Shown: one piece after another, positions 1,966 to 32,180 of the stretch
Layout of the letters: every line of letters begins with the position of its first letter
How positions within the stretch are numbered: the stretch's first letter is position 1
From: Acidimicrobiia bacterium
GTDB lineage: Bacteria > Actinomycetota > Acidimicrobiia > IMCC26256 > DASPTH01
Assembly: GCA_036502765.1 (NCBI GenBank)
Contig: DASXXX010000031.1
Coordinates: forward strand, 56,696 to 120,695
Reading direction: 5' to 3'
DNA length: 64,000 nucleotides
Made by a program: the position numbers and the translations under genes
Notes under the pieces: generated by a model
Seen by the model: the letters and a program-made list of their open reading frames with translations, nothing else
Database searches by the model: none
What the model was told of the DNA's origin: nothing

Positions 1966-2183
1966 GCGCGCCCATCGTGGTTCGGCAGTGTCCGGCTGGC
2001 GTGCAGAGTGGTTCCGCCGATCGATCGTCTCGCGAGGTTTGCTTCCTGCCGGTCGGAGTGCGCCGTGGCCAAGTATCGAGATATCCGTACGGAGGAGTTG
2101 GATGGGCAACAACTCGGCGAGCGATGGGCAACCCCGCCGCTCGACCGGAAGAGTCCTCCAGCCTCTGACCGGCCGTTTCTCTG

Positions 2184-2255
2184 CGCCCCCGGAAGGATTC
2201 GAACCTCCGCGCACGGTTTAGGAAACCGATGCTCTATCCCCTGAGCTACGGGGGC
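2184..2255 (-). tRNA. tRNA-Arg (anticodon CCT)
   Basis: 72-nt cloverleaf on the minus strand. Acceptor stem GCCCCCG/CGGGGGC, D-arm GCTC-AGGGGATA-GAGC, anticodon loop TTCCTAA, T-arm GGAGG-TTCGAAT-CCTTC, discriminator G. CCA is not encoded. Confidence 0.9.
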
Positions 2256-2936: not shown

Positions 2937-4223
2937 GTGACGGATCAGAGGGGTAGACGGTTGCGCGCGCGCTGGTGGATCGCGGTGGTGTCGGCCGTCG
3001 CGCTGGTTGGGGTGGTGTCGGGCGCGGCTGCGGCCCGAACTGCGCCGCATGCACAGGCAACGCCTGGGTTCGACGGTAAGACGATCAAGGTGGCGGGGCT
3101 CGGTTTCGCCGCGAGCTTCAACCCTGACGCCGAGGTAGGTGCGCAGGCGCGGTTCGCGAAGGCGAACGAGAGCAATGAGTTGAACGGCGTGAAGATCGAG
3201 TTCGCCGAGTTCGCCGACGACAAGTCGGACGCGGCGACCTCGGTCAACGAAGCGCGGCGTCTGGTCGAGCAGGAGGGTGTCTTCGCGATTGTGCCGATGA
3301 TGTCTTCAACTGCACCGGGCACGTACATGAACCAGAAGCAGGTGCCGTACTTCGGCTGGGGAATCGACACCAGCTACTGCGGTCCTGGCGACAAGCTCTA
3401 CGGGTTCGGTTTCGACGGCTGTGTCCTGCCACCGAACGCGAAGGCGGTGCCAGATTTCTCGGCGGGGACGACGTACAAGTACATGACCGAGACGTTGGCG
3501 ATCAAGAAGCCGACGATCGCGACCGTCGGGTACGACAGCGCGGGCGGGAAGACGTCGAATCAGTCCTTCATCGCGCAGGCGACCGGCAGCGGTTTGAAGG
3601 TGGTGTGGGCGAAGACCGCTCTCCCTGCTCCGCCCGCAGTCGTCGGTGACTACTCGCCGTTCGTCCAGCAGATCCTCGCGGCGAACGGGGGCAAGGGACC
3701 CGACGCCGTGTGGTTGCCGTTGTCGTTCAACGACGTGTTGAACATGGTCAAGGCGCTGCGCAGCGCGAACTACCAGGGCACCATCGTGACCGCGCTGTAC
3801 TCGGATGCGTTGCTCAAGCCGCTCGCAAACACGATCGCCGTCGCGCCAATCGCGCCCTTCGAGCAGCACTCGGCAGGGACCGACGCGATGGTCGCCACGA
3901 TCAAGGCGTACAAGGCCGATGCGAAGCCATCGACCGTGATGGCTGTGGGTTACCTGTCCGCTGATTTCTTCGTCAAGGCCGTGAAGAAGCTCGGCACGAA
4001 GAACCTCACTCGCCAGGCGTTGCAGAAGACGGCAGCACGCATGACCTACGGGATCCCGAACACGGTCGGGCCGACGCAGTTCCCCAGGGCGTTCCAGGCA
4101 CTGAACACGTACTGCGCGGCACTGGTGACGAACGCCGACGGTTCAGCCTGGTCGGTCGCCGAGCCGTACACGTGCACGAACAAGTTCAACAAGGTCAAAG
4201 GCACTGCCACCGAAGTTGGGTGA
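2937..4223 (+). CDS. ABC transporter substrate-binding protein, LivK/Peripla_BP_6 family (paralog 1)
   Basis: 428-aa ORF with an N-terminal signal-like segment RRLRARWWIAVVSAVALVGVVSGAAAA. It aligns full-length by eye to ORF 13062..14336, with most positions identical. Confidence 0.9.
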   Translation: MTDQRGRRLRARWWIAVVSAVALVGVVSGAAAARTAPHAQATPGFDGKTIKVAGLGFAASFNPDAEVGAQARFAKANESNELNGVKIEFAEFADDKSDAATSVNEARRLVEQEGVFAIVPMMSSTAPGTYMNQKQVPYFGWGIDTSYCGPGDKLYGFGFDGCVLPPNAKAVPDFSAGTTYKYMTETLAIKKPTIATVGYDSAGGKTSNQSFIAQATGSGLKVVWAKTALPAPPAVVGDYSPFVQQILAANGGKGPDAVWLPLSFNDVLNMVKALRSANYQGTIVTALYSDALLKPLANTIAVAPIAPFEQHSAGTDAMVATIKAYKADAKPSTVMAVGYLSADFFVKAVKKLGTKNLTRQALQKTAARMTYGIPNTVGPTQFPRAFQALNTYCAALVTNADGSAWSVAEPYTCTNKFNKVKGTATEVG

Positions 4224-4274: not shown

Positions 4275-5146
4275 TACGGGGCTTCAGGCGTGTATTCGAA
4301 GAATCCGCGACCGGACTTTCGTCCCAGCCGGCCCACTTGGTTCATCCGCCGGAGCAGCGGTGGCGGACAATATGCAGACTCGCCAAACTCGGCGTGGAGC
4401 GACTCGGCCATCGCGACCACGATGTCCACACCGATCAGGTCGCACAGTCGCAGCGGTCCCAATGGGTGGCCGAATGCGAGCACGAGTGCGTCGTCGATCT
4501 CCGATGCCGACGCGAGCCCTGCCTCGAGCATGCGAATCGCGTTGAGCAACATCGGGACGAGCAGCGCATTGACGACGAAGCCGGCTCGATCCTCGACCCG
4601 CACGACGTGCTTGCCCAGCGTGTCGCTCGCAAACGCCGTAGCCGCGCTCGTGACATGCGGGGCGGTCAGGAGCGTCGGAACTATTTCGACGAGTCGCATG
4701 ACTGGCACGGGGTTGAAGAAGTGGATGCCGAGGACGCGTTCCGGTCGGCTGGAAGAGGTGGCGATGTCGGTGACGGGGATCGACGACGTGTTCGTCGCGA
4801 GGATCGTGTCGGCGCCAACCACGGCGTCGAGTTCCGAGAAGACCTTGCGCTTCTCGTCCAGGTCTTCGATGACCGCCTCGAGGACGAGCTGCCGATCTGT
4901 GAGGCTTCCGAGACCGGTGACGAAGCTGACCTTGTTCAGCGCGAGGTTCTTCGTCTCGGCGGTGATCTTCTCGCGCTGGACGGCGCGGTCGAGCGAGCTC
5001 GTGACGCGATCGGTCGCGGCGTCGGCTCGCCGTTGATCCTGCTCGCAGAGGATCACGGAGAGTCCCGCCCGCGCACAGGTCTCGGCGATCCCGCACCCCA
5101 TGACCCCGCCACCGACGATTCCGACTCGATCGATGTCCAAGACCAT
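4274..5146 (-). CDS. 3-hydroxyacyl-CoA (3-hydroxybutyryl-CoA) dehydrogenase
   Basis: Rossmann motif VGIVGGGVMGCGIAE near the N-terminus, with family-typical FFNPVPVMRLVEIV and GFVVNALL segments. The alternative GTG start at 5173 would place the start inside the AT-rich island. Confidence 0.9.
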   Translation of the reverse strand: MVLDIDRVGIVGGGVMGCGIAETCARAGLSVILCEQDQRRADAATDRVTSSLDRAVQREKITAETKNLALNKVSFVTGLGSLTDRQLVLEAVIEDLDEKRKVFSELDAVVGADTILATNTSSIPVTDIATSSSRPERVLGIHFFNPVPVMRLVEIVPTLLTAPHVTSAATAFASDTLGKHVVRVEDRAGFVVNALLVPMLLNAIRMLEAGLASASEIDDALVLAFGHPLGPLRLCDLIGVDIVVAMAESLHAEFGESAYCPPPLLRRMNQVGRLGRKSGRGFFEYTPEAP

Positions 5147-5215
5147 CTCCAGACGAAACGTTGATACAGTCACTGTCTAGTTGCACAGCCTAGGGGTCCG
5201 TCAGAAGATGTCCGG

Positions 5216-6514: not shown

Positions 6515-7507
6515 CTAGAGGTGCTTCGCCACGAAGTCGTGCAGCTCGGCGTCGAGCTCGGCATCTTCGGGTGCAAAGCCGAAGAATCCGCCGTGGGGCA
6601 TGGCTTCGCCGACGTGGAGCTCCGCCTCGACGTCGGCGGCGCGCAGCTTGCGGTGGAAGCGAACCGTGTTCGAGAGGAAGAGGTCACGCGTGCCGGTTTG
6701 CAGGTACGTCGGTGGGAAGTGGCTCACGTCGCCGAACAAGGGGGAGAGGAACGGATCTTCGAGGTCGTGGCCGCCGCAGTAGAGGGCGATCGAGTCGGTG
6801 AGTCGGTGCACGAGCACATAGTCGACGCCGTGATTGGTCTCGAACGAGTCTCCAGATTCGGTGAGGTCGGCTTCCGGCGAGTTGAGCACGAGGCAGGCGG
6901 GCATCGGCAGACCTTCGGCGTGTGCTTTGAGCATCAGCGCGGCGGCGAGGTTGCCGCCTGCGGACGAGCCGCTCACCGCGATCTTCTTCGGAGGTCGCAC
7001 GTCGAGCAGGGCGCGGTACACGGTGAGACAATCGTCGAGCGGCGTCGGATACGGATGGTCGGGCGGCATGCGGTAGTCGACTGCCCACGTGACCAACCCG
7101 GCAGCTGTGGCCGTCACGGTTCCCATCGCCCGACACGCTTGTCCCCCGCCCGCGATGAGGCCACCGCCGTGGATGTCGTAGAGCAGTGGCGCGTCGTCGC
7201 CGTCGTCGGCGTCCGGCGGAGTGATCACGAACACGTCGATGCCTTCGATCGAGATCTGTTCCACCGTCGCGTCGATGGCCGCGATGCGGGCTTCGATGCC
7301 GATCAGGATCTGTTCGTCCATCGCCGCGATGGTGGCCTTCCACGCGGCGTGGTCGTCGAGGGCGGGAAACGCCTGCGGGGAGGTCAAGCGGTCCGACACC
7401 ATTTGACTGCCCATGACCATGAGGGCCTGAGCCTCCGGGCTCACTGACTGTGGCACTGGGATGCTGCGCGTCAGATGCAACGTTCCGTCGTCGGTCGGGT
7501 TGCTCAT
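6515..7507 (-). CDS. Alpha/beta hydrolase, hormone-sensitive-lipase-type carboxylesterase
   Basis: HGGG oxyanion motif (YDIHGGGLIAGG) and nucleophile elbow GSSAGGNLAAA. GGAGG Shine-Dalgarno upstream of ATG 7507. Confidence 0.85.
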   Translation of the reverse strand: MSNPTDDGTLHLTRSIPVPQSVSPEAQALMVMGSQMVSDRLTSPQAFPALDDHAAWKATIAAMDEQILIGIEARIAAIDATVEQISIEGIDVFVITPPDADDGDDAPLLYDIHGGGLIAGGGQACRAMGTVTATAAGLVTWAVDYRMPPDHPYPTPLDDCLTVYRALLDVRPPKKIAVSGSSAGGNLAAALMLKAHAEGLPMPACLVLNSPEADLTESGDSFETNHGVDYVLVHRLTDSIALYCGGHDLEDPFLSPLFGDVSHFPPTYLQTGTRDLFLSNTVRFHRKLRAADVEAELHVGEAMPHGGFFGFAPEDAELDAELHDFVAKHL

Positions 7508-7552
7508 GTGATCTGGGTGCCTCCGTGTAGTGGTCGGATTTCGGGACGCCGT

Positions 7553-8707
7553 TCAGCGTCCGCGTAGCCAGTCCTGGATGACGGCGTCGGTGTCGGCACC
7601 GAGTGCGGGACCGTTCGACGGGACGCGGAGCGGCGTAGCGAGCAGGTGCGGCGCGGGGGATGGGACGCGGAGGACACCGCTCTCGGGATCGTGGACCGTT
7701 GTGATGCTCGACCGTGCGCGCACCTGCGGATTCGCGTAGAGCCCCGCGATGTCTTGCACTTCGGTGACCGGAACTCGCGCATCGACGAGGGCGGTGACGA
7801 CGGTCGCCAGTTCGTGGCGGGCGACCCAGCCCGCGACCGCAGCATCGAGCTCATCGGCGTTCGCGTTCCGGTCGATGGCAGTGGCGAAGCGTTCGGTGCT
7901 TTCGTGGTTCGCGTCGATGACACTGAGCAACCTCGCCACCTGAGAGTCGGTCGGCCCTGAGATCACGACCCACCGGTCGTCGCTCGTCCGGTAGACGTTG
8001 CGAGGCGTGGCGACAGGTATCCGACTCCCCGTGCGACCCGGAGCAGGTTCGCCCGGTGACCAGGTGGCCATGGCCGGTCCGAGGAGTTGCAACACCGCTT
8101 CGTAGATCGACGCGTCGACGAACTGTCCCGTTCCGCCACGGGCGTCGCGCCAGTACAGGGCTGCGAGGACGCCTTGGAATCCGAAGCAGGCACCGAGATA
8201 GTCGCCGATCGGTACCGAGGACAGGATCGGCGGCCCGTTGGCTTCGCCCGTCATGTGCGTCAGACCTGCGAACGCCTCGAGCACCGTGCCGGTACCGGGT
8301 CGTTCGGCGTATGGTCCGTCGGCGCCGTATCCGCTCACGAGCACGACGACCGCGCCCGGATTGCGTTCGGCGATTGCCTCAGCGCTGCACGCCCACCGTT
8401 CGAGCACGTGCAAGGGCTGGTTCAGTACGACGACGTCGGCCACCTCGGTGAGGCGATGTACGAGCGCGAGGCCATCGGGGTCGTCGAGGTCGGCAACGAG
8501 CGACCTCTTGTTCCGGTTGGCGAGCGACCAGATGGAGCTGCGCGTGCCGCGCATCGCACCGGTGACGCGGAGCGGATCACCGGTGGGGGGTTCGACCTTG
8601 ACGACGTCGGCGCCGAGGTCGCCGAGCATCGCGGCGAGCATCGGGCCGGGCAGAAGTGTGGAGAGGTCCAGGACGCGCACACACTCCAGCGCGCGGGGAG
8701 CATTCAC
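7553..8707 (-). CDS. Family III (CaiB/BaiF) CoA-transferase
   Basis: N-terminus ...VRVLDLSTLLPGPMLAAMLGDLGADVVKVEPP. I trimmed the start to GTG 8707 because the upstream 83 codons of the ORF are Arg-rich and cross a hairpin plus an AT-rich island. Confidence 0.85.
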   Translation of the reverse strand: MNAPRALECVRVLDLSTLLPGPMLAAMLGDLGADVVKVEPPTGDPLRVTGAMRGTRSSIWSLANRNKRSLVADLDDPDGLALVHRLTEVADVVVLNQPLHVLERWACSAEAIAERNPGAVVVLVSGYGADGPYAERPGTGTVLEAFAGLTHMTGEANGPPILSSVPIGDYLGACFGFQGVLAALYWRDARGGTGQFVDASIYEAVLQLLGPAMATWSPGEPAPGRTGSRIPVATPRNVYRTSDDRWVVISGPTDSQVARLLSVIDANHESTERFATAIDRNANADELDAAVAGWVARHELATVVTALVDARVPVTEVQDIAGLYANPQVRARSSITTVHDPESGVLRVPSPAPHLLATPLRVPSNGPALGADTDAVIQDWLRGR

Positions 8708-8879
8708 GATCGCCGGGTCCGAGTGATCGCTGATTCCATCCGTGGTCGGCCGACGCTGCGACGGCAGCGCGTGCGAGAGTATGCGACTGAACAAGAGTAG
8801 TGCAGTTGTGTATGTCGCTCGACCTGCGACAACACCCGCGTCGACATTCCGTCGGCCATGCGATGACCGGGTGACGAAC

Positions 8880-8919
8880 GGAGGAGGATCGGCCCAGGGG
8901 GGTGTGCCGATCCTCCTCC
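8880..8919 (-). terminator. Strong hairpin downstream of the amidohydrolase/NTF2 operon
   Basis: Perfect 14-bp stem GGAGGAGGATCGGC / GCCGATCCTCCTCC with a 12-nt loop, 65 nt after the NTF2-like stop. There is no U-tract. Confidence 0.5.
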
Positions 8920-8983
8920 GTCGAACGCAGCGATGCCCGGGGCGAACCCCAGGCATTGCCGCGAATCCTCGTCGCCTGAGCCG

Positions 8984-9550
8984 TCAGCGCACCGCGACGG
9001 AATCCCAGAACGGTGCCCACGTCGAAAATGACTCGGGGAGCCGATTCGTCGTGATCGGATCGACGTCCGGTTCCATGCCGGCGCCGGGAGCTGGGCGCGT
9101 GAGTGCGTCAGTCTGGTACCACCGGTAGAACCTTCGCCGTTCGAATGCCCACGCCCCGTCGGTGCGGCGATAGGTGTCGTGGTACTGCAGCATCCCGACC
9201 TTCCACTCGCCGGTGTCGGGACATTCGACCTCGTCTCGGCAGTAGACGATGCCGTGCGCTCGGTCGTTGGCGTCGAAGTCGATGATGTGGTTCGCGACGA
9301 CGTGGACAGATGTTCGTACCTTGGTCATCGCGTCGGTGAACCATTCACGCAACGCTTCGCGGCCGGTCGCGGTGGCACCGACGCGTACGTCGGGCACGAA
9401 CAGCGTCACCAACATCGCGATGTCGCGCGAATCCAGCGCGAGTGCGTACCGCGGGGGGAGTTGGCGGATCGCAGCCAGCGATTCGAGCCGGTCGACACGA
9501 GCGTCGAGTGTCGCAGGCTCCCAGGTTCCGAGCTCCTGCTCGGGGGTCAT
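8984..9550 (-). CDS. NTF2-like / SnoaL-like fold protein
   Basis: 188 aa read from ATG 9550, which forms an ATGA overlap with the upstream stop. The pattern LPPRYALALDSRD...VHVVANHIIDFD...GIVYCRDE...DGAWAFERRRF is typical of SnoaL_4/ring-hydroxylating beta-subunit-like proteins. Confidence 0.75.
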   Translation of the reverse strand: MTPEQELGTWEPATLDARVDRLESLAAIRQLPPRYALALDSRDIAMLVTLFVPDVRVGATATGREALREWFTDAMTKVRTSVHVVANHIIDFDANDRAHGIVYCRDEVECPDTGEWKVGMLQYHDTYRRTDGAWAFERRRFYRWYQTDALTRPAPGAGMEPDVDPITTNRLPESFSTWAPFWDSVAVR

Positions 9551-10860
9551 TTCCCCCCGGTCATGACTGGTCCCATCCGCAGCTTCATGTCGCCGAACGT
9601 GATCGGTTTGCTGCCGGGCTTCGGGGCTCGTCCGGCTGCCACCTTCGGCGCGGAGAGGTCGCGGTCGCTGACCCGCTCGCGGAGCGCGCCGACCGTGCAC
9701 GCGTCGCGTCCGAGGCGGTCGACGGCGTCGTAGTGGAATCGCCGCGCGGCGTTCTGCCAACAGATGGCATCGACGTCCGCTTGGCTGCATCCTTCGAGCT
9801 GGGCGGCGAGCTGTTCTGCGGCGTCGGGCCAGGAGCTGTCGGAGTGGGGATAGTCCATCTCCCAACAGATCGTCCCGATCCCGATCTCGTCGCGGAGGCC
9901 GACACCGATGCGATCGCGGATGAAGCAGGCGAGGAAGTTGCGGCGGAACACGTCGGTGGGTGTGAGACCGTTGCCGAGGTCGTCGCCCGTCCAAGCCCGC
10001 TGCCGGGCATACGTGTCCTCGAGGCGTTCGAGCACGAAGGGAATCCAGCCGATGCCGCCCTCCGACATCGCGAACGTCAGCGTCGGGAATTCCTGGATCA
10101 CGCGGGAGAAGAGCAGGTCGGACGCGAACCGGACGGTGTCGATCGCGACGATCGCATTGAACGTCAGGTAGTTGGTCATGTCGGAGGGGACCGGTGCACC
10201 ACCCCCGGTGCCGATGTGGATGTTCACCACGGAGTCTTCGTCACTGCAGGCTGCCCACAGCGGATCCCAGTGAGGGTCCTGCCACGGTGGGCCGCCGTAC
10301 GTACCGATGTGCTGCGGCACGGTGATCGCTCGACAGCCGTTCGCGGCGAGGCGCCGGACTTCCGCCGCCGCGAGGTGCGGATCCCACAACGGCACGATGC
10401 CGAGTGGGATGAAGCGGTCGGGATACGCGCCACACCAGTCCTCGAGGTGCCAGTCGTTGTACGCCCGCACCATCACCTCTGAGACGTCGCGTTCGCCGTG
10501 CACCGTGAACATCGCTCCGGAGATGGTGGGGAACGAGGGGAAGCACAGCGAGGCGAGTACGCCGGCGACGTCCATGTCCTTGACCCGCTCGTGGATGTCG
10601 TAACAACCGGCCCGCATGTCGTCGAAACGTGTGGGTTCGAATCCCCATTCGTCATTCGGCCGGCCGGCCACGGCGTTGAGGCCGATGTTCGGAAGGCGCG
10701 CGCCCGCGTACTCCCAGGCGGAATCGCCGTTGTCGTCGACGATCACTCGGGGGGCTTGGTCGCGATAGCGCGCCGAGACCCTCCCCTCGAACATGTCGGG
10801 CGGTTCCACAGTGTGGTCGTCGATGCTGATCAGGACCAGATCGAGAGGTTCAATGCTCAT
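9547..10860 (-). CDS. Amidohydrolase-2 family metal-dependent hydrolase
   Basis: The N-terminus MSIEPLDLVLISIDDHTVEPPDMFEGRV matches this family's typical N-terminus. I chose ATG 10860 as the start; the upstream 28 codons of the ORF run into the AT-rich promoter island. Confidence 0.85.
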   Translation of the reverse strand: MSIEPLDLVLISIDDHTVEPPDMFEGRVSARYRDQAPRVIVDDNGDSAWEYAGARLPNIGLNAVAGRPNDEWGFEPTRFDDMRAGCYDIHERVKDMDVAGVLASLCFPSFPTISGAMFTVHGERDVSEVMVRAYNDWHLEDWCGAYPDRFIPLGIVPLWDPHLAAAEVRRLAANGCRAITVPQHIGTYGGPPWQDPHWDPLWAACSDEDSVVNIHIGTGGGAPVPSDMTNYLTFNAIVAIDTVRFASDLLFSRVIQEFPTLTFAMSEGGIGWIPFVLERLEDTYARQRAWTGDDLGNGLTPTDVFRRNFLACFIRDRIGVGLRDEIGIGTICWEMDYPHSDSSWPDAAEQLAAQLEGCSQADVDAICWQNAARRFHYDAVDRLGRDACTVGALRERVSDRDLSAPKVAAGRAPKPGSKPITFGDMKLRMGPVMTGGK

Positions 10861-10866
10861 GGATGC

Positions 10867-10898
10867 ACTGTAAGACAAACAATGTACAGAAGTACAGT
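10867..10898. promoter_or_regulatory. 32-bp AT-rich divergent promoter/operator element (copy 1)
   Basis: ACTGTAAGACAAACAATGTACAGAAGTACAGT is 27/32 identical to 32181-32212. The ends are reverse-complementary TAnnnT-like hexamers, and the internal palindrome is TGTAC-AGAA-GTACA. Confidence 0.55.
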
Positions 10899-10985
10899 CT
10901 CGGAGGGCGCGTCGCAGCACCTCGGAGCGGTGGTACGAAAGCACATGTCGTGTGTTAGCGTCCCGCCGCCGTCAGAGGCACGCTC

Positions 10986-11444
10986 GTGAATGGGGGAGCC
11001 ATGGGAACGAACCCGACCGGAGGGTCGTCGCAGGATCCAGTCGAGCTCCGGCCGCTGTGCCGCGCGACCTACGAGCTCGGCGCCACGGCAACGGTGTCGA
11101 ACGGCCCACTCGGAACCCGCCTGGTGAGCGAGATCGCAGCGGCACGGTTCGAAGGCGAACGGTTCCGCGCGTCTCTGGTCGGATCAGTGGCGGCCGACTG
11201 GGCCACCATCGAGCCGGACGGCAGGATCTGCATCGACGTCCGACTCACCCTGCAGACCGATGACGGTGCGGTTGTGCTCGTGACCTACCAGGGTCGCGGT
11301 GACGCCGCGACCGGGACGTCGTACTCCGCGCCGCTCTTCGAGACGGGCGACGAACGGTACGCGTGGTTGACGCGCATTCAAGCCGTGGGGAAGAGCACCT
11401 TCGACGGCGTCGAGCTGCACTTCGAGATGTTCGAACTGGTCTGA
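10986..11444 (+). CDS. DUF3237-family beta-barrel protein
   Basis: 152 aa. The segment GPLGTRLVSEIAAARFEGERFRASLVGSVAADWATIEPDGRICIDVRLTLQTDDGAVVLVTYQGR matches my recollection of the DUF3237 pattern. The exact start is uncertain (10986 or 11001). Confidence 0.7.
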   Translation: MNGGAMGTNPTGGSSQDPVELRPLCRATYELGATATVSNGPLGTRLVSEIAAARFEGERFRASLVGSVAADWATIEPDGRICIDVRLTLQTDDGAVVLVTYQGRGDAATGTSYSAPLFETGDERYAWLTRIQAVGKSTFDGVELHFEMFELV

Positions 11445-11469
11445 ACGCCCCAGAGGAGTGTCGTTCCGG

Positions 11470-12999
11470 TCAGCTCCAGCTGAGACTCTTGACCTCGGTG
11501 AACGTCTCGAACCCGAGGTGGCCCCACTCGCGGCCGATGCCGCTCTGTTTGAACCCGCCGAACGCACCCGACTGACCGATGCCGGCGGGCGTCGAACCCC
11601 AACCCGGTCCCTGGCCACCACCGGGACCGAGATCGCCTGAGGAGGACGCGCCGACGCCTTGGGCGCTCATCAAACCAGCCCGGATCCGGCGGGCGACATT
11701 GAACGCCCGCGCGGTACTCGCCGCGATGACGCGCCCGCCGAGCCCGTAGATCGAGTCGTTGGCCCGGCGCACCGCGTCGGTGTCGCTGCCCGAGTACGGG
11801 ATCACGGTGAGCACGGGACCGAAGATCTCTTCCTGCGCGATGCGCATGTCGTTGGTGCCGATCAGCACGGTGGGTTCGTAGAAGAAGCCGCGGTCGATGC
11901 CTTCCGGTCGGCGTCCTCCACAGACGAGCTCGGCGCCCTCGGCAATGCCGGCAGCGACCAGTGCTTCCACCTTGGCGCGTTGCTGCTCGCGAATCAGTGG
12001 CCCGAGCGTGGTCGTCGAATCGGTCGGATCACCGATCCGGACGTGAGCGCGCGCTTCCTCCACGCCATCGCGGTACGCGTCGAGCAGGTGCTCGGGGAGC
12101 AGCAGGCGCGTCTGCAGCACACATCCCTGGCCGCAGTGCATCAGCACTTCGCCGAACCCGATCGAGCGTGCGTAGTCCTCGCCGACGTCATCAAGGACCA
12201 CGTGAGCCGACTTGCCGCCGAGCTCGAGGTGCAGCCGCTTCATCGTCTCGGCACCCACGGCCATGATGCTCTTGCCCGTTGCAGTCGAGCCGGTCATCGT
12301 GATCATGTCGACGAGCGGATTCGTCGTGAGCTCCGTGCCGACCGCGACGTGGCCCGTGATCACGTTGAGGACACCCGGGGGCAGATCGGCATCGATCGCC
12401 GCCTGTGCGATCATGAACGCGTCGAGCGGCGTCCACGGGTGCGGTTTCAACACCACGGTGCAGCCGGCGGCAAGCGCAGGCGCGGTCTTGAGCACGTTCA
12501 GCATGAACGGGTAGTTGAACGGCGTGATCGCGCCGACGACGCCGACCGGTTCCCGCAGGATGGCTCGCCCGCTCATCCCCGTGGGTCCGGCGGTGGGCGG
12601 GTCGACCTCCATCCACTCGAAACCCTGCTCCGCGAGCGCCGCATTCGACTCGAACATGCCGATGGCGCCACCTGCCTGCACGTAGTCGGTCAGGACACCC
12701 ACGGTCCCGGTCTCGGCGACCACGAGCTCTCGGAGCTCGGCGGCGCGGGCCGTGAGTGCGTCACCCATGCGGCGCAGCGCGGCGGCGCGTTCCGCCGGCT
12801 TCATCCAGGGCCAGGGGCCTTCGTCGAAGGCAGCGCGTGCGGCAGCGATGGCCCGCGCCGCGTCCTTGGGCGTCGCGTCGGGAACGGAACCGATGACTGC
12901 TTCCGTGGCCGGGTTGAGGACCTCGATCGGCGTGCCGCCGGCTTCGCCCGGATCCCAGGTCCCGTCGATGAAGAGGTCGAAGTCCCATCGTGTGCTCAT
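11470..12999 (-). CDS. NAD(P)-dependent aldehyde dehydrogenase
   Basis: FNYPFMLNVLKTAPALAAGCTVVLKP, ELGGKSAHVV and the catalytic-Cys region MHCGQGCVLQTRLL. Start trimmed to ATG 12999 (MSTRWDFDLFIDG). Confidence 0.9.
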   Translation of the reverse strand: MSTRWDFDLFIDGTWDPGEAGGTPIEVLNPATEAVIGSVPDATPKDAARAIAAARAAFDEGPWPWMKPAERAAALRRMGDALTARAAELRELVVAETGTVGVLTDYVQAGGAIGMFESNAALAEQGFEWMEVDPPTAGPTGMSGRAILREPVGVVGAITPFNYPFMLNVLKTAPALAAGCTVVLKPHPWTPLDAFMIAQAAIDADLPPGVLNVITGHVAVGTELTTNPLVDMITMTGSTATGKSIMAVGAETMKRLHLELGGKSAHVVLDDVGEDYARSIGFGEVLMHCGQGCVLQTRLLLPEHLLDAYRDGVEEARAHVRIGDPTDSTTTLGPLIREQQRAKVEALVAAGIAEGAELVCGGRRPEGIDRGFFYEPTVLIGTNDMRIAQEEIFGPVLTVIPYSGSDTDAVRRANDSIYGLGGRVIAASTARAFNVARRIRAGLMSAQGVGASSSGDLGPGGGQGPGWGSTPAGIGQSGAFGGFKQSGIGREWGHLGFETFTEVKSLSWS

Positions 13000-13061
13000 C
13001 GTGTGCCTCGTTCTCGGCGCCGGCGTCGGCCACCGGCGGACGGTTGAGAATCGGAGAGAGG

Positions 13062-14336
13062 TCAGCCGACCTCGGAGGTGTCGCCCTTCACCTTGGAGAA
13101 GTGGTTCGTGCACGTGTACGGCACGGCGACGGTCCAAGCCGAACCGTCGGCGTCCTTGACCATTGCCGCGCAGTAGGTGTTCAGCGCTTGGAACCCCCTG
13201 GGGAACTGGGTGGGGCCCACTGCGTTCGGAATGGCGTAGGTCATGTGCGCCGCGGCGTTCTGCACCGCCTCGCGGGTGAGGTGCTCGAGACCAGCCTTCT
13301 TCACGGCCTTGATGAAGAAATCGGCAGAGAAGTAGCCAACGGCCATCGTGGTGGAGGGCTTGGCGTCAGGCTTGAACGCCTTGATGTCCGCCACCATCGC
13401 GTCGGTTCCCGCCGAGTGCTGCTCGAACGGAGCGATCGGTGCGACGGCGTACGTTCCCGCCAGCGGCTTGAGCAACGCGTCGGCGTAGAGCGACGTGATG
13501 ATCGTGCCCTGGTAGCCCGCAGCGGTCAGTGCCTTGGGCAGCCCCAGGGAGTCGCTGACACCGGACGCGATCCACACCACATCGGGGCCTTTCCCGCCGT
13601 TCGATGCCAGGATCTGCTGCGCATACGGCGAGTAGTCGCCCACGACCGCAGGGGGTGCAGGAAGGCTGTGCTTGGCCCAGACCACCTTGAAACCGCTTCC
13701 GGTGGCCTGTGCGATGAACGACTGCATCGCAGTGTTTCCAGACGCGCTGTCGGTGCCGATCCCGGCGATCGTGGGATGCTTGATGTCCAGCGTGTCGGTC
13801 GCGTACTTGAACGCTGTGCCCGCGGCGAAGTCAGGCACCACCTTCGGACTGGGCGGCAGGACACAGCCATCGAAACCGAGCCCGTAGAGCTGGTCGCCGG
13901 TTCCGCAGTAGCTCTTGTCGAAGCCCCATCCGAAGTACGGCACCTTCTTCAGGTTCAGGTAGTCGCCCGGAGCCGTCGACGAGACCATGGGAACGATCGC
14001 GAACACACCATCCTGCTCGACGAGTCGACGCGCCTCGTTGACGGACGTCGTCGCATCCGACTTGTCGTCGGCGAACTCGCCGAAGTCGATCTTGACGCCC
14101 TTCAACTCGTTGGTGTCGTTCGCCTTCTCGAACCGCGCTTGGGCACCGACTGCAGCGTCCGCGAAGTTCGTCGCGAACCCCAGCCCCGACACCTTGATGG
14201 TCTTGCCATCGAACCCCGGCGTCTGTGGCGCAGTGCCTGCGCCCGCGACGCCGACCGCGGTGGCCAGAAGCCCGATCACGATGACGAATGAGATCGCGAA
14301 CTTCGCGCGTGCGCTCTTCCTGCTCGTGGTTGTCAC
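13062..14336 (-). CDS. ABC transporter substrate-binding protein, LivK family (paralog 2)
   Basis: 424 aa with the signal-like segment FAISFVIVIGLLATAVGVAGAG. Collinear with 2937..4223, sharing blocks such as DDKSDATTSVNEARRLVEQ and QSFIAQATGSG. Confidence 0.9.
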   Translation of the reverse strand: MTTTSRKSARAKFAISFVIVIGLLATAVGVAGAGTAPQTPGFDGKTIKVSGLGFATNFADAAVGAQARFEKANDTNELKGVKIDFGEFADDKSDATTSVNEARRLVEQDGVFAIVPMVSSTAPGDYLNLKKVPYFGWGFDKSYCGTGDQLYGLGFDGCVLPPSPKVVPDFAAGTAFKYATDTLDIKHPTIAGIGTDSASGNTAMQSFIAQATGSGFKVVWAKHSLPAPPAVVGDYSPYAQQILASNGGKGPDVVWIASGVSDSLGLPKALTAAGYQGTIITSLYADALLKPLAGTYAVAPIAPFEQHSAGTDAMVADIKAFKPDAKPSTTMAVGYFSADFFIKAVKKAGLEHLTREAVQNAAAHMTYAIPNAVGPTQFPRGFQALNTYCAAMVKDADGSAWTVAVPYTCTNHFSKVKGDTSEVG

Positions 14337-14384
14337 TCGGTTCCCCCCGATCGACGCATCCGACCGCGACCAGCGGTCGGAGCA

Positions 14385-14418
14385 ACAAGACGTTCGATGT
14401 GTAGTTGTGCAGACACAA
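14385..14418. promoter_or_regulatory. AT-rich island upstream of a P450 gene, between divergent genes
   Basis: ACAAGACGTTCGATGTG (14385-14401) recurs with small indels at 41757-41776. It is followed by the palindrome TTGTG-CAGA-CACAA (14405-14418). Confidence 0.4.
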
Positions 14419-14495
14419 CATAGCCCGATCCCGTGGGTATGACCGGTCGCGTCAGGTCCCCACGAGGTGGTGGCATTAAGACATCAGGCGTTCTA

Positions 14496-15710
14496 ATGTC
14501 TCCCGGCATGGAGACGCTCGCGGAACGATTCGACGAACCCGCCTTCTACCTGCGTGATCCCCACGCCACCTACCGCCGGCTCCGGGCCGAGGACCCCGTG
14601 CACTGGTACGACGAGGGCCAGTTCTGGGTCATCACCAAGTACGACGACATCAAGTACATCTCGACGCATCCGTTGTTGTTCTCGTCGAAGGACATCGCGA
14701 TCATCTCGGGCCTCGTCGACCGACGTCACGGCGTTCCGAAGACCCCGATGCAGGAAAGTCCGGCCGTGATGTTCATGGACCCACCGGAACACGGTCCGTA
14801 CCGCAAGGTGGTCAGCCACCGCTTCACGCCGAAGGAAGTGGGCGCGCTCGACGATCACGTGCGCACGGTGATCCGTGAACTCGTGCAGGGGCTCCCGGAC
14901 GGCAAGTTCGACCTGGTCGAGCAGGTGGCAGAGCCGGTGCCGGTGTTCGTGTTCTCGAAGTTGCTCGGCATCCCCGCGAGCGAATGGCACCAGGTCGTGG
15001 AGTGGGCGACCATCATCACGAATCTGGGCTCGGGGCAGGGCACCCAAGACGACATGGATCTCGTCATGAACGTGGTCGGGCCGTACCTGTGGCAGCTGAC
15101 GATGGACCGGCGCGCCGATCCGACCGACGACCTGTTGTCCCTGCTGACGCAGGCAGAGTTCGACGGCCGGCCCCTCAACGAGGGGGAGATCATCGGATAC
15201 GCGACGACCCTCCTGGCGGCCGGAAGCGAGACGACCCAGAGCCTCATCGGCGGCTTGGGTCACGTCCTCACCCACTTCCCGGAGCAGGCCGACGAGTTCT
15301 TCGCCGATCCCAGCCTCTCGCTGGCGATGGTGGAGGAGACCATGCGTTGGTGGACGCCGGTGATGAGCATGGCCCGCGAAGCGACCGCGGACGTTGCCCT
15401 CCGCGACAAGGTGATCCGCAAGGGTGACGGTGTGCTCCTCCTCTACTCGGCTGCCAATCGCGACGAGGAACGCTGGGGCGACGACGCGGAAGAGTTCGTC
15501 CTTCGGCGCCCGGACGCGTCAGGCCAACTCGGCTTCGGCATCGGGGAGCACTTCTGCATGGGCGCGCACCTCGCCCGACGCGAAGCCCGCATCCTCCTGG
15601 AAGAGTTCGCGGCGCGGGGTCGACGACTCGACCCGGTCGGCGAAGGAGAGCTGCGATCGTCGACGTTGATCCACACCTACGACCGGCTGCCAGTCGAACT
15701 GGTGCGCTGA
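14496..15710 (+). CDS. Cytochrome P450
   Basis: Heme-ligand motif FGIGEHFCMGAHLAR and I-helix LLAAGSETT. I chose ATG 14496 as the start because upstream codons have low GC3 and because similarity to the paralog begins at ..SP(G/D). Confidence 0.9.
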   Translation: MSPGMETLAERFDEPAFYLRDPHATYRRLRAEDPVHWYDEGQFWVITKYDDIKYISTHPLLFSSKDIAIISGLVDRRHGVPKTPMQESPAVMFMDPPEHGPYRKVVSHRFTPKEVGALDDHVRTVIRELVQGLPDGKFDLVEQVAEPVPVFVFSKLLGIPASEWHQVVEWATIITNLGSGQGTQDDMDLVMNVVGPYLWQLTMDRRADPTDDLLSLLTQAEFDGRPLNEGEIIGYATTLLAAGSETTQSLIGGLGHVLTHFPEQADEFFADPSLSLAMVEETMRWWTPVMSMAREATADVALRDKVIRKGDGVLLLYSAANRDEERWGDDAEEFVLRRPDASGQLGFGIGEHFCMGAHLARREARILLEEFAARGRRLDPVGEGELRSSTLIHTYDRLPVELVR

Positions 15711-15740
15711 CCCGTCCGGCGGCCTCGCGAAAGGGTCTTC

Positions 15741-17378
15741 ATGTCCCTCGACGTTCCGCTGCGTGCTCCGAGCCCGGAGCTGCAGCACCGATACCGGGCT
15801 GAGCACCTGTGGCTCGACCGATCACTCGGAGGGTTCTTCGACGACTACCTCGCACGGGGCGCCGATCTCGAGGTCCGGTTCTGGTCCGAGACCGCGCCGT
15901 ACCGGGGAACGTTCGGTGACGTGCACCGGGAGGCGCGACGCTTCGCTGGCGGGCTCCAAGCCCGGGGGATAGCGATCGGCGATGTCGTGACCTATCAATT
16001 GCCGAACCGGGTCGAGGCGATGATCGCGCTCTACGGCGCGGCGATGGCGGGCGCGGTCGTCGTTCCCGTGGTCCACTTCTACGGCCCGAAGGAGCTGCAG
16101 TTCATCCTCGAGCAGCTCGGGGCGAGGGTGCACCTCACGACTGCAACCTTCGGCTCGTCCCGGTACCTGGATGCGCTCGACGGGTTCCGCACTGACGTGG
16201 CAACGCTGGAACACATCGTGCTGGTGGGTGACGGTACGGCGCCGTGGACGGAGCCTTTTGCCGACGTGCTCAGCGCGGCACCGCTTGACGATCTCCCGTC
16301 GACGGATCCGATGGCTCCGGCGATCATCGGCTACACGTCGGGTACCACGTCAGATCCGAAGGGCGTGGTCCATGTGGCGAACTCCTTCGTCGCCGAGGCC
16401 CTTCAGATGAAGGACTACGACGTCGGCCGGTCGCGGCCCTTGCTCACCGGTGCGCCTCTGGCTCATGCAATGGGGATCACCGGGGGAGCGGTGCTGCCGC
16501 TCATGCGGCACGAGCCGTCGCACCTCGTCGACCGCTGGGAACCTGATCGTGTCTTGGCGATCATGCTCGAAGCGGGCCTGTCGTCAGGGAGTGGAGCGAC
16601 CTACTTCCTCACCAGCCTCTTCGACGCTGCGACCTTCACGCCGGCTCATGCCGAGATCATGGAGGGGGTCGGTCTCGGGGGATCAACGGTCCCCGGCGCG
16701 GTGTGCGACCGGGCCGAGGATCTCGGCGTGGTGGCCGTCCGTTCGTACGGTTCGACCGAACATCCGACGTCGATCGGCGCCGTTCGGAGCGACACGCCGG
16801 AGCACCGCAAGTACACGGAAGGACGGCCGCTCGCGGGTTGTGAAGTGCGGATCGTCGACGACGCCGGGCGTGACATCTCTGATGGAGTCGCCGGGGAGAT
16901 CCTCAGCCGCGGGCCCGACCTCTTCTTCGGGTACGTCGATCCGATGCTGACCCGAACTGCGCTCGACCGTGACGGGTGGTACCACACCGAGGACCTCGCG
17001 ATCCGCGACCCCGACGGCTACATCACGATCGCCGATCGGAAGAAGGACATCATCATCCGCGGCGGTGAGAACATCAGCGCGAGTGAGGTCGAGGAGATCC
17101 TCCAGCGCATGCCGGGCGTCTCTGAGGTTGCGGTCGTCGCAGCACCCGACGACCGCCTGGGGGAGCGCGGTTGCGCGTTCGTGGCCCCGATCCTCGGACG
17201 AACCCCACCTTCGCTCGAAGATGTACGCGCGCACTTCCGCGAGAGCGGTGTCGCGCGTCAGAAGTGGCCAGAGGAACTCCGAGTCGTCGATCAGTTCCCG
17301 CGCACACCGTCGGGGAAGATCAAGAAGCAGGTGCTCCGCGCGGAACTCCAGGACCGAGCGAGGTCGACGACCTCGTGA
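15741..17378 (+). CDS. AMP-dependent acyl-CoA synthetase/ligase
   Basis: AMP-binding motif IIGYTSGTTSDPKGVVH, then GWYHTEDLAIRDPDGYITIADRKKDIIIRGGENI, with a C-terminal PRTPSGKIKK. Confidence 0.9.
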   Translation: MSLDVPLRAPSPELQHRYRAEHLWLDRSLGGFFDDYLARGADLEVRFWSETAPYRGTFGDVHREARRFAGGLQARGIAIGDVVTYQLPNRVEAMIALYGAAMAGAVVVPVVHFYGPKELQFILEQLGARVHLTTATFGSSRYLDALDGFRTDVATLEHIVLVGDGTAPWTEPFADVLSAAPLDDLPSTDPMAPAIIGYTSGTTSDPKGVVHVANSFVAEALQMKDYDVGRSRPLLTGAPLAHAMGITGGAVLPLMRHEPSHLVDRWEPDRVLAIMLEAGLSSGSGATYFLTSLFDAATFTPAHAEIMEGVGLGGSTVPGAVCDRAEDLGVVAVRSYGSTEHPTSIGAVRSDTPEHRKYTEGRPLAGCEVRIVDDAGRDISDGVAGEILSRGPDLFFGYVDPMLTRTALDRDGWYHTEDLAIRDPDGYITIADRKKDIIIRGGENISASEVEEILQRMPGVSEVAVVAAPDDRLGERGCAFVAPILGRTPPSLEDVRAHFRESGVARQKWPEELRVVDQFPRTPSGKIKKQVLRAELQDRARSTTS

Positions 17379-17393
17379 GCATCCGGTGGCCGT

Positions 17394-18605
17394 TCAGGTC
17401 AGGCGCACCGGAAGTCGATTGAACGTGGCGACGATCGTCGAATCGCGTCGCTCGACCGGTCCCGTGAGCTCGATGCCGGACGCTCGCCGTGCGAGTTCCT
17501 CGATGAGGATGCGGACCTCGCGTCGTGCCAGGTGCGCACCCAGGCAGAAGTGCTCGGCGAACCCGAACGCGAGGTGACGAGTGATCGACGGCCGGTCGAT
17601 GTTCCACTGATCGGCGTCATCACCCCACTCCTCCTCGTCCCGATTGCCGGATCCGTACGCGAGGAGCACCGCCTCACCGCTGCGAATGGTCTTGCCGCGC
17701 AACTCGACGTCTTCCTTCGCCTGGCGCGCCATGCTCACAACTGGCGTCCACCACCGCAGGGTCTCCTCGACTGCGGCAGCCGCGAGGCTGGGGTCGGCGA
17801 GAATGCGCTGCGCCTGATCGGGGTGCTGCGTCAATGCCCACACGAGCCCGGCGATGAGACTCTGAGTGGTCTCGCTCCCCGCGGCGAGCAGCGCGATCGC
17901 CCACCACACGACCTCGATGGGCGTGAGGGGCCGCCCGTACACCGTCGCTTCCGCGATGAGGGTGAGGAAGTCGTGGTCGGGTACTGCTCGGCGCTGCTCG
18001 AGGAGGTCCTCGAGGTAGGGAACGACCTCGGCGTACACCGCGGCCATGGTCTCCTGGGTCTCGGTGCCTCCACCTGATGCAGTGATCAGCGTTGCCCAGT
18101 GCAAGATCCGGCGCCAGTCCTTGCGCGGGACACCCAGCAGATTGGCGAACACGTTGACGGGGATGGGCTCGGCGAGGAGTTCGACGGCATCGAAGTTGCC
18201 GGCGGGGAGCGAATCGAGGGTCTCGCGGATCACGTCGCGCACCGGACCGTCGATCTCGTTGACGCGTGCAGGAGTGAGCTCCCGATTCAGCACCTTGCGG
18301 TGCTCGAGATGGTCGGGCGGATCCAGCAACATCAAAGATGTCCGCGGAGGACGCTCCATGCCTTCGCGGATCTTGATGATGTCACCCAGGATCGCGATCT
18401 CCGACGAAGGGAACAGCTCCGGGTGCTTCGAGACGAAGCGGATGTCCTCGTACTTCGTGATCACCCAGAACGGCCCGTCCTCGTACCAGTGCACCGGATC
18501 GTGCTGCCGGAGGTACGCGAATTGCTCGTTCGGAGCGTCGACGTAGAACTCGGCGCGGTCGTAGCGCGCCACCACCTCATCAGGTGAGACCGGTGTTGTG
18601 GGCAC
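17394..18605 (-). CDS. Cytochrome P450 (paralog of 14496..15710)
   Basis: FGFAEHFCLGAHLAR and LLAAGSETT. The N-terminal YDRAEFYVDAPNEQFAYLRQHDPVHWYEDGPFWVITKYEDI parallels the paralog. The start is set to GTG 18605, preceded by GGGGGA; alternatives are 18584 and 18581. Confidence 0.85.
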   Translation of the reverse strand: MPTTPVSPDEVVARYDRAEFYVDAPNEQFAYLRQHDPVHWYEDGPFWVITKYEDIRFVSKHPELFPSSEIAILGDIIKIREGMERPPRTSLMLLDPPDHLEHRKVLNRELTPARVNEIDGPVRDVIRETLDSLPAGNFDAVELLAEPIPVNVFANLLGVPRKDWRRILHWATLITASGGGTETQETMAAVYAEVVPYLEDLLEQRRAVPDHDFLTLIAEATVYGRPLTPIEVVWWAIALLAAGSETTQSLIAGLVWALTQHPDQAQRILADPSLAAAAVEETLRWWTPVVSMARQAKEDVELRGKTIRSGEAVLLAYGSGNRDEEEWGDDADQWNIDRPSITRHLAFGFAEHFCLGAHLARREVRILIEELARRASGIELTGPVERRDSTIVATFNRLPVRLT

Positions 18606-18768
18606 GGGATCCCCCGGGATCGTCGCCGCATGGACGGTAACACAGCAAGTGCACAGTCGTATTGCCCCCACCGTGGTCCGAGGGCTCTCATCTGATTGCC
18701 GGCGTTCCCCGAGGACGACCGTCCACGACGCTACGGTGACGACCGGCCGACGGCATGGGACGGAAGTG

Positions 18769-19392
18769 ATGGCGGCACGAGGATCAGTGGACGAAGACTC
18801 GACCCGCACGCGGATCCTCGATGCGGCGCTGCAGTGCTTCAAACAGCTGGGCATCGAGAAGACGAGCCTGCTCGACGTTGCCCGCACGGCCGATCTCTCA
18901 CGAGGAACCGTGTACCGGTACTTCTCCGATCGGCAAGCGCTCATCGACGCCACGGTGATCCACAACAGCGAGAACGACTACGCCGAGGCTCTGACCGTGA
19001 TGAGCTCCTACCCGACACTGGTCGAACAGGTCGGTGCGTTCGGTGAGGTCTTCGCCCGGAACATCGGCAACTACCGCCGGAACTGGTTGGTCAACGACGA
19101 CCGTGAGCTCCAACGCCTGATCGCCTCTGACCGTGAGGGCGGCCTGCGCCGGATGTCGGACTTCCTCGCACCGTACGTGGAGGCGAGCAAGCAGCGCGGA
19201 GAGATCAGCCCAGAGATCGACGCGGAGGAAGCGGGCGAATGGATCGCCCGGATGTTCATGTCGTTGACCCTCATGCCGGGCTCATCCGCGTTCGATGCCC
19301 GCAAGCCGAAGACGTTCCGTGTGTTCCTGGAGCACTACGTGGTCGACGGCCTCGCCCCGCCCCGCAAGCGGGCAAAACGCGCCAAGCGCTAG
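18769..19392 (+). CDS. TetR-family transcriptional regulator (paralog 1)
   Basis: HTH region TRILDAALQCFKQLGIEKTSLLDVARTADLSRGTVYRYFSDRQALI. It is divergent from the P450 at 18605 and collinear with the TetR at 56198. Confidence 0.9.
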   Translation: MAARGSVDEDSTRTRILDAALQCFKQLGIEKTSLLDVARTADLSRGTVYRYFSDRQALIDATVIHNSENDYAEALTVMSSYPTLVEQVGAFGEVFARNIGNYRRNWLVNDDRELQRLIASDREGGLRRMSDFLAPYVEASKQRGEISPEIDAEEAGEWIARMFMSLTLMPGSSAFDARKPKTFRVFLEHYVVDGLAPPRKRAKRAKR

Positions 19393-19406
19393 CCGGCGAC
19401 GGGGAC

Positions 19407-20591: not shown

Positions 20592-20602
20592 GGCCGTGGT
20601 CC

Positions 20603-29634: not shown

Positions 29635-29755
29635 GCGTCCTCTGCGTGCTCGAACCGCTGTCGACCGCGACAGCCGGTGCCTTCGCGTTCCGTGGTCATG
29701 GCCCCCCAGCGCATCGACGCAGGTGTTCGCAATCATGTCGCGACGAGGCGCAACA

Positions 29756-29783: not shown

Positions 29784-29801
29784 CCACCGTGGGCTCACGG
29801 G

Positions 29802-32115: not shown

Positions 32116-32180
32116 GTTCCTTCCGACGACGTGCTCGTGCTTTCGAGCGCCACGTCGGAAGGGTCGGGAGCCATGGCGGT

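Follow-up and report, generated by a model that had tools for sequence, protein, structure and literature searches.

A 32-bp element repeated at two divergent intergenic regions of an Acidimicrobiia catabolic island is a candidate promoter-operator of probable shared ancestry

Two intergenic regions lying 21 kb apart in the genome of an Acidimicrobiia bacterium carry nearly the same 32-bp AT-rich sequence, each time between divergently transcribed genes. Both belong to a 64,000-nt stretch of contig DASXXX010000031.1 (assembly GCA_036502765.1, positions 56,696 to 120,695 of the forward strand), referred to below as the window. What does this element do, and why does one genome hold two copies of it? 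The original prediction, made from the letters of the window, had read it as a shared promoter-operator. According to the sequence comparisons reported here, the repeated element is a real regulatory element and not a product of chance. We consider it probable that the element has a promoter-plus-operator architecture and that its two copies are of paralogous origin.

The two copies, found exactly as quoted in the original prediction and at the coordinates given there (Table 1), are identical at 27 of 32 positions. They differ at element positions 7 and 12-15 only, and their likeness continues leftward into CATGG. In a window with about 67% G+C, each copy is the AT-rich patch of its divergent intergenic region, as had been pointed out, and the labels then given to the flanking genes agree with Pfam. 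The pattern ACTGTA-N20-TACAGT (up to 2 mismatches) finds copies 1 and 2 and nothing else in the 64 kb, where 0.18 matches are expected; two matches were reached in 3 of 100 shuffles. For the common 16-mer TGTACAGAAGTACAGT (up to 3 mismatches) there were two matches against 0.03 expected, a number reached in none of 100 shuffles. Segments 7428-20860 and 29212-38117 of the window are matched with no mismatches by the Joint Genome Institute (JGI) contigs L155 and L167 (sample 3300036773). Because separate contigs reproduce both regions, the arrangement is not an artefact of a single assembly.

Conservation was followed with an exact scan for the 17-mer ATGTACAGAAGTACAGT, which forms the right part of the element, over 185,579 species genomes (one genome per species; the source genome is outside this collection). 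The 74 matches are about the chance level and most come from unrelated organisms. Three of the matching genomes are true relatives, metagenome-assembled genomes (MAGs) labelled 'uncultured Actinomycetes' (L012, L032 and L067; 67-68% G+C), and in each of them the whole 32-bp element is present. For these three the identity of the 17-mer was a condition of discovery, and the ACTGTA arm, the position and the spacing were not subject to such ascertainment. A fourth relative, L075, came from a protein search of metagenomes with the amidohydrolase encoded next to copy 1 (80% identity), independently of the motif. Since L075 was located via its protein and not via the motif, its perfect core is unbiased.

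The synteny observed in all four relatives is the same: an enoyl-CoA hydratase (ECH) operon, the element, an amidohydrolase gene and two acyl-CoA dehydrogenase (ACAD) genes, with a single copy of the element. The original prediction had named a dispersed repeat as the finding that would speak against an operator; in each related genome of the species collection the 17-mer instead matches exactly only once, and every time this match is at the orthologous promoter. Copy 2 is identical to the L012 and L032 copies at 32 of 32 positions and to the L067 copy at 28 of 32, all at the orthologous junction between ECH and the amidohydrolase-ACAD genes. Across the six copies in five genomes, the core made of ACTGTA and the 17-mer agrees at 23 of 23 positions in every pair. 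Between lineages, identity is 3-6 of 9 for the nucleotides separating ACTGTA from the 17-mer, 1-4 of 6 for the spacer leading to the ATG and about 30-40% for the 30 nt to the right of the element. Some genes are split or read through in the long-read MAG loci L012, L160 and L162 (e.g., an 854-aa 'amidohydrolase' in L012, fragmented P450 and ligase calls); these breaks are probably indel errors, which would depress some of the identity values.

The non-relatives among the 74 matches were set aside. They comprise a Caldilineaceae coding sequence, scattered AT-rich matches and a multi-copy repeat of Bacillaceae. The latter is a highly conserved sequence of about 90 nt that contains the 17-mer, is found in Peribacillus, Cytobacillus, Niallia and Bacillus (L002, L003, L006-L008, L013, L018 and others) and is often situated some 290-310 nt away from the end of a contig. 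This repeat has nothing to do with the element and probably belongs to an insertion sequence or an intron.

Both ends of the element read as outward-facing TACAGT, and the original prediction took them for -10 hexamers. Their observed geometry supports this. TACAGT, six nucleotides and an ATG follow each other at both window copies and in L012, L032, L067 and L075, so that the gap is fixed in five genomes while the six intervening bases are unconstrained. The distance of 6 nt predicted for the amidohydrolase start proved exact and is kept in the relatives; the same distance to a minus-strand ATG at copy 2 had been overlooked. In Mycobacterium tuberculosis, TANNNT is located 7-12 bp upstream of 73% of primary transcription starts, leaderless mRNAs are common and the transcription starts have no -35 consensus (PMC3898074). 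The leftward ends of the element resemble such leaderless -10-only promoters, as a TANNNT ends 6 nt before an ATG with neither a -35 consensus nor a Shine-Dalgarno sequence, but they belong to an uncultured Acidimicrobiia host and the geometry is seen on one long open reading frame (ORF) in the window. This ORF, the amidohydrolase gene, is the only long one with a TANNNT, 6-7 nt and a start codon in succession, and it is probably leaderless. Its more distant orthologs (68-74% identity) have a TAGAAT-like hexamer, 7 nt and then a GTG start. Among the distant orthologs L076-L089 the leaderless-type -10 box is kept and the inverted repeat is different (e.g., GGAACAGATATACATTATCTGTTC), i.e., the operator has turned over at an orthologous promoter. 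The upstream neighbour of these genes, first suspected to be a TetR gene, is in fact a small ORF of 140 aa.

On the right side, the ECH start (GTG 32249, or ATG 32243 according to L167) is located about 30 nt past the predicted transcription start and has GGAGG in front of it. At copy 1 the rightward leader to the ATG of the DUF3237 gene would be about 96 nt long, and the rightward hexamer possibly drives this gene. TACAGT or its complement ACTGTA occurs eight times in the 64 kb (at 2658, 2876, 5165, 10867, 10893, 32181, 32207 and 52835), always outside called genes; seven of the eight are in intergenic spacers beside gene starts and the one at 2658 is in an unannotated stretch downstream of a tRNA-Arg gene. 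TACAGT appears to be the preferred -10 box of the lineage or of the island. Two of the eight are extended -10 boxes (TGNTACAGT): TTGATACAGT (5162-5170) upstream of a short-chain dehydrogenase/reductase (SDR) gene and TTGCTACAGT (52832-52840) upstream of an ECH gene, the second of them conserved in a relative (L158, about 4552-4560). A reading of the element as a structured RNA or a cruciform was rejected: Rfam gave no match at E<=1 for the element or leader, single-strand folds were not significant (z-scores from -0.8 to -1.4), and the element is upstream of both predicted transcription starts.

The palindrome TGTAC-AGAA-GTACA, originally described as overlapping the rightward hexamer in the right half of the element, is indeed placed so, within the 17-mer that is invariant across copies. 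Its arms are perfect over 5 bp, extend to 6 bp with one mismatch and do not vary in the six copies. The candidate operator would span positions -22 to -37 or so of the predicted left promoter, and it overlaps the right TACAGT by 4-5 nt. Because the palindrome overlaps the right -10 box and also covers the left promoter, one bound dimer would occlude both. Searching the window for TGTAC-N4-GTACA (up to 1 mismatch) gave four matches against 0.19 expected, a number not reached in 100 shuffles, and all four are located at intergenic promoters. Besides the two element copies these are two related palindromes, sites 3 and 4, listed in Table 1. At site 3 the region 2859-2881 contains the palindrome ATGTACAAGTATACAT, which is at the same time a perfect ATGT-N8-ACAT; it is a possible further target of the same or a paralogous regulator. 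The site 4 region (62123-62157) has the palindrome AGTGTACAAGCATACACT over the -10-like hexamers TACACT and TATGCT, in both directions. Enumeration of all palindromes in the window was swamped by codon-bias repeats (GTCGAC and similar) and was uninformative.

The closest experimental parallel to the palindrome's shape comes from M. tuberculosis, where the TetR-family repressor Rv3066 binds as a dimer, with nanomolar affinity, to the 14-bp inverted repeat TGTACATTTGTACA (IR1, upstream of mmr); electrophoretic mobility shift assays and DNase I footprinting demonstrated the binding (PMC3467072). The arms and spacing of the 14-bp TGTAC-N4-GTACA are the same in the element (TGTACAGAAGTACA compared with TGTACATTTGTACA), and both sites belong to actinobacterial promoter regions. 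The central 4 bp, however, differ, the targets are catabolic enzymes and not an efflux pump (Pfam shows no efflux pump gene adjacent to the element copies), and binding here is a prediction.

In actinobacterial islands of steroid and lipid catabolism, the TetR repressors KstR and KstR2 act through short palindromic operators, which are found at many of the divergent promoters of ACAD, ECH, CoA-transferase and P450 genes. The element shares with these regulons the TetR-type logic at divergent promoters of catabolic clusters, but the motifs TnnAACnnGTTnnA (KstR) and AnCAAGnnCTTGnT (KstR2) are absent from both 32-bp copies. Lacking these motifs and an orthologous regulator, the element is outside the Rv3066 and KstR systems. 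A sequence nearer to the KstR class than the element is GAACAC-N3-GTGTTC at 33165-33181, although its spacing is different. The region around it, between the ECH and SDR genes inside the rightward operon (33150-33198; 7406-7445 in L032; about 3090-3130 on the reverse complement of L012), holds a conserved palindrome different from that of the element, ACAGAACAC-N3-GTGTTCTACTG, which has the look of a second class of operator, similar to that of KstR. Upstream of TetR2, one of the two TetR genes of the window, there is a comparable CAGGAAC...GTTCTG (56128-56150).

The second half of our question, the presence of two copies, is addressed by a 20-codon ORF next to copy 2. Its first 12 or so codons match the N-terminus of the relatives' amidohydrolase (MTIDPSELVLVS) and its last 8 or so the C-terminus (GTSTSSAGK followed by the stop codon). 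This relic ORF keeps the start 6 nt from the predicted -10 box, as well as the GTGA overlap of its stop codon with the GTG start of the first ACAD gene, an overlap also present in L012 and L032. Since the relic ORF fuses the two ends of the gene, an in-frame deletion must have taken about 417 codons out of the resident amidohydrolase. At copy 1, the intact amidohydrolase shares 74% identity with the L032 protein (ECH, 92%) and 80% with that of the more distant L075; it is nearly as remote from its own clade as the outgroups are (70-72%), and its phylogeny relative to L012, L032, L067 and L075 is at odds with that of its neighbours. Judging by these identities, it is not simply the resident gene moved elsewhere; they suggest an old paralog or xenolog with its own promoter-operator, 21 kb away. 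The amidohydrolase is only 74-80% identical to those of the relatives, and the identity of the two cores therefore reflects long-term constraint rather than recent copying. By the same evidence the two copies would not be independent inventions but descendants of one ancestral divergent promoter.

Taken together, the element would comprise all of the core of two promoters arranged back to back, with a repressor operator built in. Its left end, ACTGTA (TACAGT on the minus strand), would serve as the -10 box of a leaderless mRNA that begins at the A of the ATG 6 nt away and carries the amidohydrolase at copy 1; at copy 2 it would carry the relic ORF, whose translation would be coupled to that of the ACAD genes. 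The right-end TACAGT would be the -10 box of the rightward transcript, i.e., of the ECH operon at copy 2 and possibly of DUF3237 at copy 1. A TetR-type dimer on the palindrome, most likely the product of the window's TetR1 gene, would block RNA polymerase in both directions until released by a pathway metabolite. At the ancestral locus a single element presumably separated the hydratase operon from an operon of amidohydrolase and ACAD genes; in the present genome a divergent amidohydrolase with its own promoter-operator would have come to stand 21 kb off, with the resident gene deleted in frame.

A bolder version of this history is tentative, and we hold it less likely to be true than false by a wide measure. 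In this version the promoter-operator is a portable unit, an amidohydrolase that arrived or persisted with a perfect 23-bp core of its own functionally displaced the resident gene, and the relic was retained as a selected leaderless 'starter' ORF, a translational coupler to ACAD via GTGA, with the internal 9 nt hinting at a second modular factor. Two sequences that overlap these 9 nt, one of 12 nt and one of 10 nt, are seen again at two further promoters of the island: TATGACATCTCA of copy 2 is found reverse-complemented as the 12-mer TGAGATGTCATA (62146-62157), 8 nt from the site 4 palindrome, and ACAAACAATG of copy 1 is found at 29761-29770, inside a conserved intergenic patch ending in TTGTACAG. 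The internal 9 nt are thus not obviously neutral within this genome and may reflect a second factor or shuffled promoter modules. The AT-rich patch itself (29751-29786) separates the second ACAD gene from the gene for the ABC permease/ATPase, is conserved in L012 (7759-7799) and is possibly an internal promoter with a half-site.

TetR1 is our best candidate for the binder of the element, with a chance that we put close to even but not above it. As a general rule, a TetR regulator represses a divergent neighbouring gene if fewer than 200 bp separate the two (PMC3511530), and TetR1 is divergent to a P450 gene at such a distance. In L156, L160, L161 and L162 the 166-bp divergent region between TetR1 and P450 contains the conserved block ATGTAC-GGTA-GCACAG-CAC-TTGTAC-AGTC-GTAC(C/T)G, in which two sites stand in tandem; each deviates from the consensus at 1-2 positions, and the first overlaps the P450 -10 box. 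In L156 and L162, a luciferase-like monooxygenase gene some 6.7 kb away from TetR1 has a perfect CTGTAC-CATC-GTACAG upstream of it, which overlaps TACCAT. The helix-turn-helix (HTH) of TetR1 is invariant among the orthologs. This arrangement is similar to the TetR/tetO paradigm (PMC3511530), in which palindromes of about 15 bp in a divergent promoter region repress both directions and copies lie between the TetR gene and its neighbour. It differs in that the main operator would be 8-13 kb from the TetR gene, at a remote divergent pair, with one operator per promoter instead of two.

Several side observations concern the TetR proteins. The TetR1 protein is 100% identical to a protein from a 'MAG TPA: Acidimicrobiia bacterium'. 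TetR1 and TetR2 are paralogs that share 55% identity, and the core of the recognition helix, SRGTVYRYF, is the same in both; the TetR1 orthologs have a conserved basic C-terminal tail, PPRKRAKRAKR, and TetR2 has no such tail. TetR2 was rejected as the regulator: upstream of it and at its orthologous loci (L158, L165) there are patches of the GAAC...GTTC type, but GTAC sites are missing; the same is true of a third TetR paralog, P0019. Comparison of TetR1 with PDB returned generic TetR matches only, and the Rv3066 structures 3T6N, 3V6G and 3V78 are not among its best 60 matches, with either the full-length protein or the HTH as the query. The GC-rich palindrome CGACAC-TACG-GTGTCG near distant TetR1 orthologs was considered as an alternative operator and dropped, being expected by chance (P about 0.26) in a GC-rich spacer and giving noise in genome scans.

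A number of observations weigh against the reading proposed here, most of them against TetR1 in particular. The window's own TetR1-locus sites are degenerate, with 4 mismatches each to CTGTAC-N4-GTACAG. The more distant orthologs L163 and L164 have no GTAC sites near the gene in spite of the same HTH. On the 68.7-kb contig of L075 the only match to TetR1 is a TetR2 ortholog, some 30 kb of that contig being unread. TetR1 is not a close relative of Rv3066. As to the element itself, the copies of three of the four relatives were found by the exact 17-mer search, so their identity over the 17-mer is ascertained. A scan for E. coli-type -35/-10 promoters found nothing, as is to be expected for actinobacterial promoters, and because of this empty scan geometry and conservation carry the promoter call by themselves.

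The first three of these points favour the nearest alternative, namely the same architecture with a binder other than TetR1, the product of a gene at some other place in the genome (a further TetR, or a member of a different family such as PadR), for which the TetR1-P450 region would be just one more target. PadR regulators have the consensus ATGT-N8-ACAT, and site 3 reads so exactly. Yet no gene for a PadR or another non-TetR repressor was found in the 64-kb island, the GTAC-type sites seen in the L032 genome all cluster around TetR1, Rv3066 provides a TetR precedent for exactly TGTAC-N4-GTACA, and the rule on divergent neighbours closer than 200 bp favours TetR1. We therefore regard another regulator as unlikely, though of the alternatives it deserves the most attention.

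It is improbable that the 17-mer is kept purely for recognition by RNA polymerase and its sigma factor, as a -10 box with discriminator-like or UP-like contacts upstream. TACAGT is the recurrent -10 box of the island and forms both element ends, as such an explanation would have it. The other TACAGT promoters (5165, 52835, 2876), however, have no ATGTACAGAAG upstream, and eleven additional invariant and dyad-symmetric bases, more than the constraint known for any -10-only promoter, would be left unexplained. Moreover, elsewhere the palindrome overlaps hexamers of differing sequence: TACCAT in L156 and L162, ACGGTA at the P450 promoter and TACACT at site 4.

Still less probable is an activator site, e.g., for the LuxR-type response regulator encoded at 1192-1965, in place of a repressor operator. 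GTACAG-AA-GTACAG can also be read as a direct repeat, and a HisKA_3/LuxR two-component pair does exist in the island, beside site 3. From the geometry, though, the site would be centred near -15.5 of the right promoter and -29.5 of the left one, overlapping the polymerase footprint, which is not a typical position for an activator; and apart from site 3, about 900 bp off, no similar sites were found beside the response-regulator gene.

We give very little credit to the idea that a small mobile cassette moved the amidohydrolase and that the element, with ACTGTA...TACAGT as inverted ends, marks where this cassette ends or recombines, so that its conservation would be due to mobility. The second copy is exactly at the boundary of the relocated amidohydrolase, whose phylogeny conflicts with that of its neighbours. 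Against mobility stand the single exact 17-mer match in each related genome of the species collection, always at the orthologous promoter, the lack of transposase, integrase or other recombinase genes nearby, viral and plasmid searches that found no association, the insignificant single-strand fold, and the fixed 6-nt distance to the ATG, which is a property of promoters. Finally, a chance resemblance or a recent neutral duplication without function has next to no probability, for small as the sample is, this explanation is already refuted by the shuffle controls and by 23/23 conservation where the linked proteins differ by 20-26%.

Table 1. Features of the locus, given as positions in the window
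Feature	Position	Strand	Basis or remark
Element copy 1, ACTGTAAGACAAACAATGTACAGAAGTACAGT	10867-10898	none	Read from sequence; core shared by all six copies
Element copy 2, ACTGTATGACATCTCATGTACAGAAGTACAGT	32181-32212	none	Read from sequence; ancestral position
Predicted leftward -10 hexamer of copy 1 (TACAGT on minus strand), amidohydrolase promoter	10867-10872	-	6 nt from ATG 10860
Predicted leftward -10 hexamer of copy 2	32181-32186	-	6 nt from minus-strand ATG 32174
Rightward -10-like hexamer TACAGT of copy 1, facing DUF3237	10893-10898	+	Overlaps candidate operator by 4-5 nt
Predicted rightward -10 hexamer of copy 2, ECH/SDR/CoA-transferase operon	32207-32212	+	Geometry to ECH start
Candidate TetR-type operator of copy 1, ATGTAC-AGAA-GTACAG, 16 bp	10882-10897	none	Perfect 5-bp arms TGTAC/GTACA, 10883-10896
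Candidate TetR-type operator of copy 2, 16 bp	32196-32211	none	Same invariant sequence
Site 3, related palindrome TGTACAAGTATACA	2860-2873	none	TACAGT 2876-2881 next to it; LivK-like solute-binding protein gene downstream (2937, +)
Site 4, related palindrome TGTACAAGCATACA	62124-62137	none	Between P450 gene (ATG 62082, -) and glyoxalase-like gene (ATG 62201)
Relic ORF, MAPDPSDVALESTSTSSEGT followed by stop, 20 codons	32112-32174	-	Alignment to 5' and 3' ends of amidohydrolase in L012/L032; blastn synteny
Amidohydro_2 gene, first of amidohydrolase/SnoaL_4/CoA-transferase/hydrolase operon	9547-10860	-	Pfam; identical JGI gene call
DUF3237 gene, right of copy 1	11001-11444	+	Pfam; JGI gene call
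First ACAD gene, GTG start overlapping relic ORF TGA	30871-32115	-	Pfam; 414-aa ACAD called here in L167
ECH gene, first of rightward operon	32249-33133	+	Pfam; 92% identical to L032 protein
TetR1, TetR-family regulator	18769-19392	+	Pfam; 193 bp from divergent P450 gene
Degenerate counterparts of TetR1-locus sites (ATGGAC-GGTA-ACACAG, GTGCAC-AGTC-GTATTG)	18630-18664	none	Alignment
TetR2, TetR gene	56198-56815		Paralog of TetR1

Pfam assigns the genes leftward of copy 1 to Amidohydro_2, SnoaL_4, CoA-transferase III and an alpha/beta hydrolase. Leftward of copy 2 there are two ACADs and a fused ABC permease/ATPase, and rightward of it ECH, SDR, two CoA-transferases (CoA-transferase III), a glyoxalase-like protein, a DUF35/ChsH2-like protein and a thiolase. 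All else in the window forms a single large catabolic island with six cytochrome P450 genes, acyl-CoA ligases and hydratases, which also holds LivK-like binding proteins, the two TetR genes and the HisKA_3/LuxR pair. At its left edge a tRNA-Arg(CCT) gene (2183-2255, minus strand) was found in a stretch of about 970 bp that is otherwise unannotated; tRNA genes are common at island borders.

The logic of the system, if correctly read, is already known from tetO and the KstR regulons, its palindrome is shaped like Rv3066 IR1, and the current understanding of TetR-type control is unchanged. Most distinctive would be a promoter-operator retained with a displaced gene, together with an in-frame relic ORF in which leaderless start and translational coupling are preserved. 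If the tentative history is true, a gene fossil has here become a functional translational coupler. To our knowledge, no regulation has been characterised in this lineage. For a large island of an uncultured soil Acidimicrobiia, which encodes P450s, ACADs, hydratases and CoA-transferases as well as an ABC uptake system, the analysis yields a concrete predicted operator, ATGTAC-N4-GTACAG, together with a TetR that may bind it and a small putative regulon. It would also be a natural example of regulon membership surviving gene relocation, with the promoter-operator moving along.

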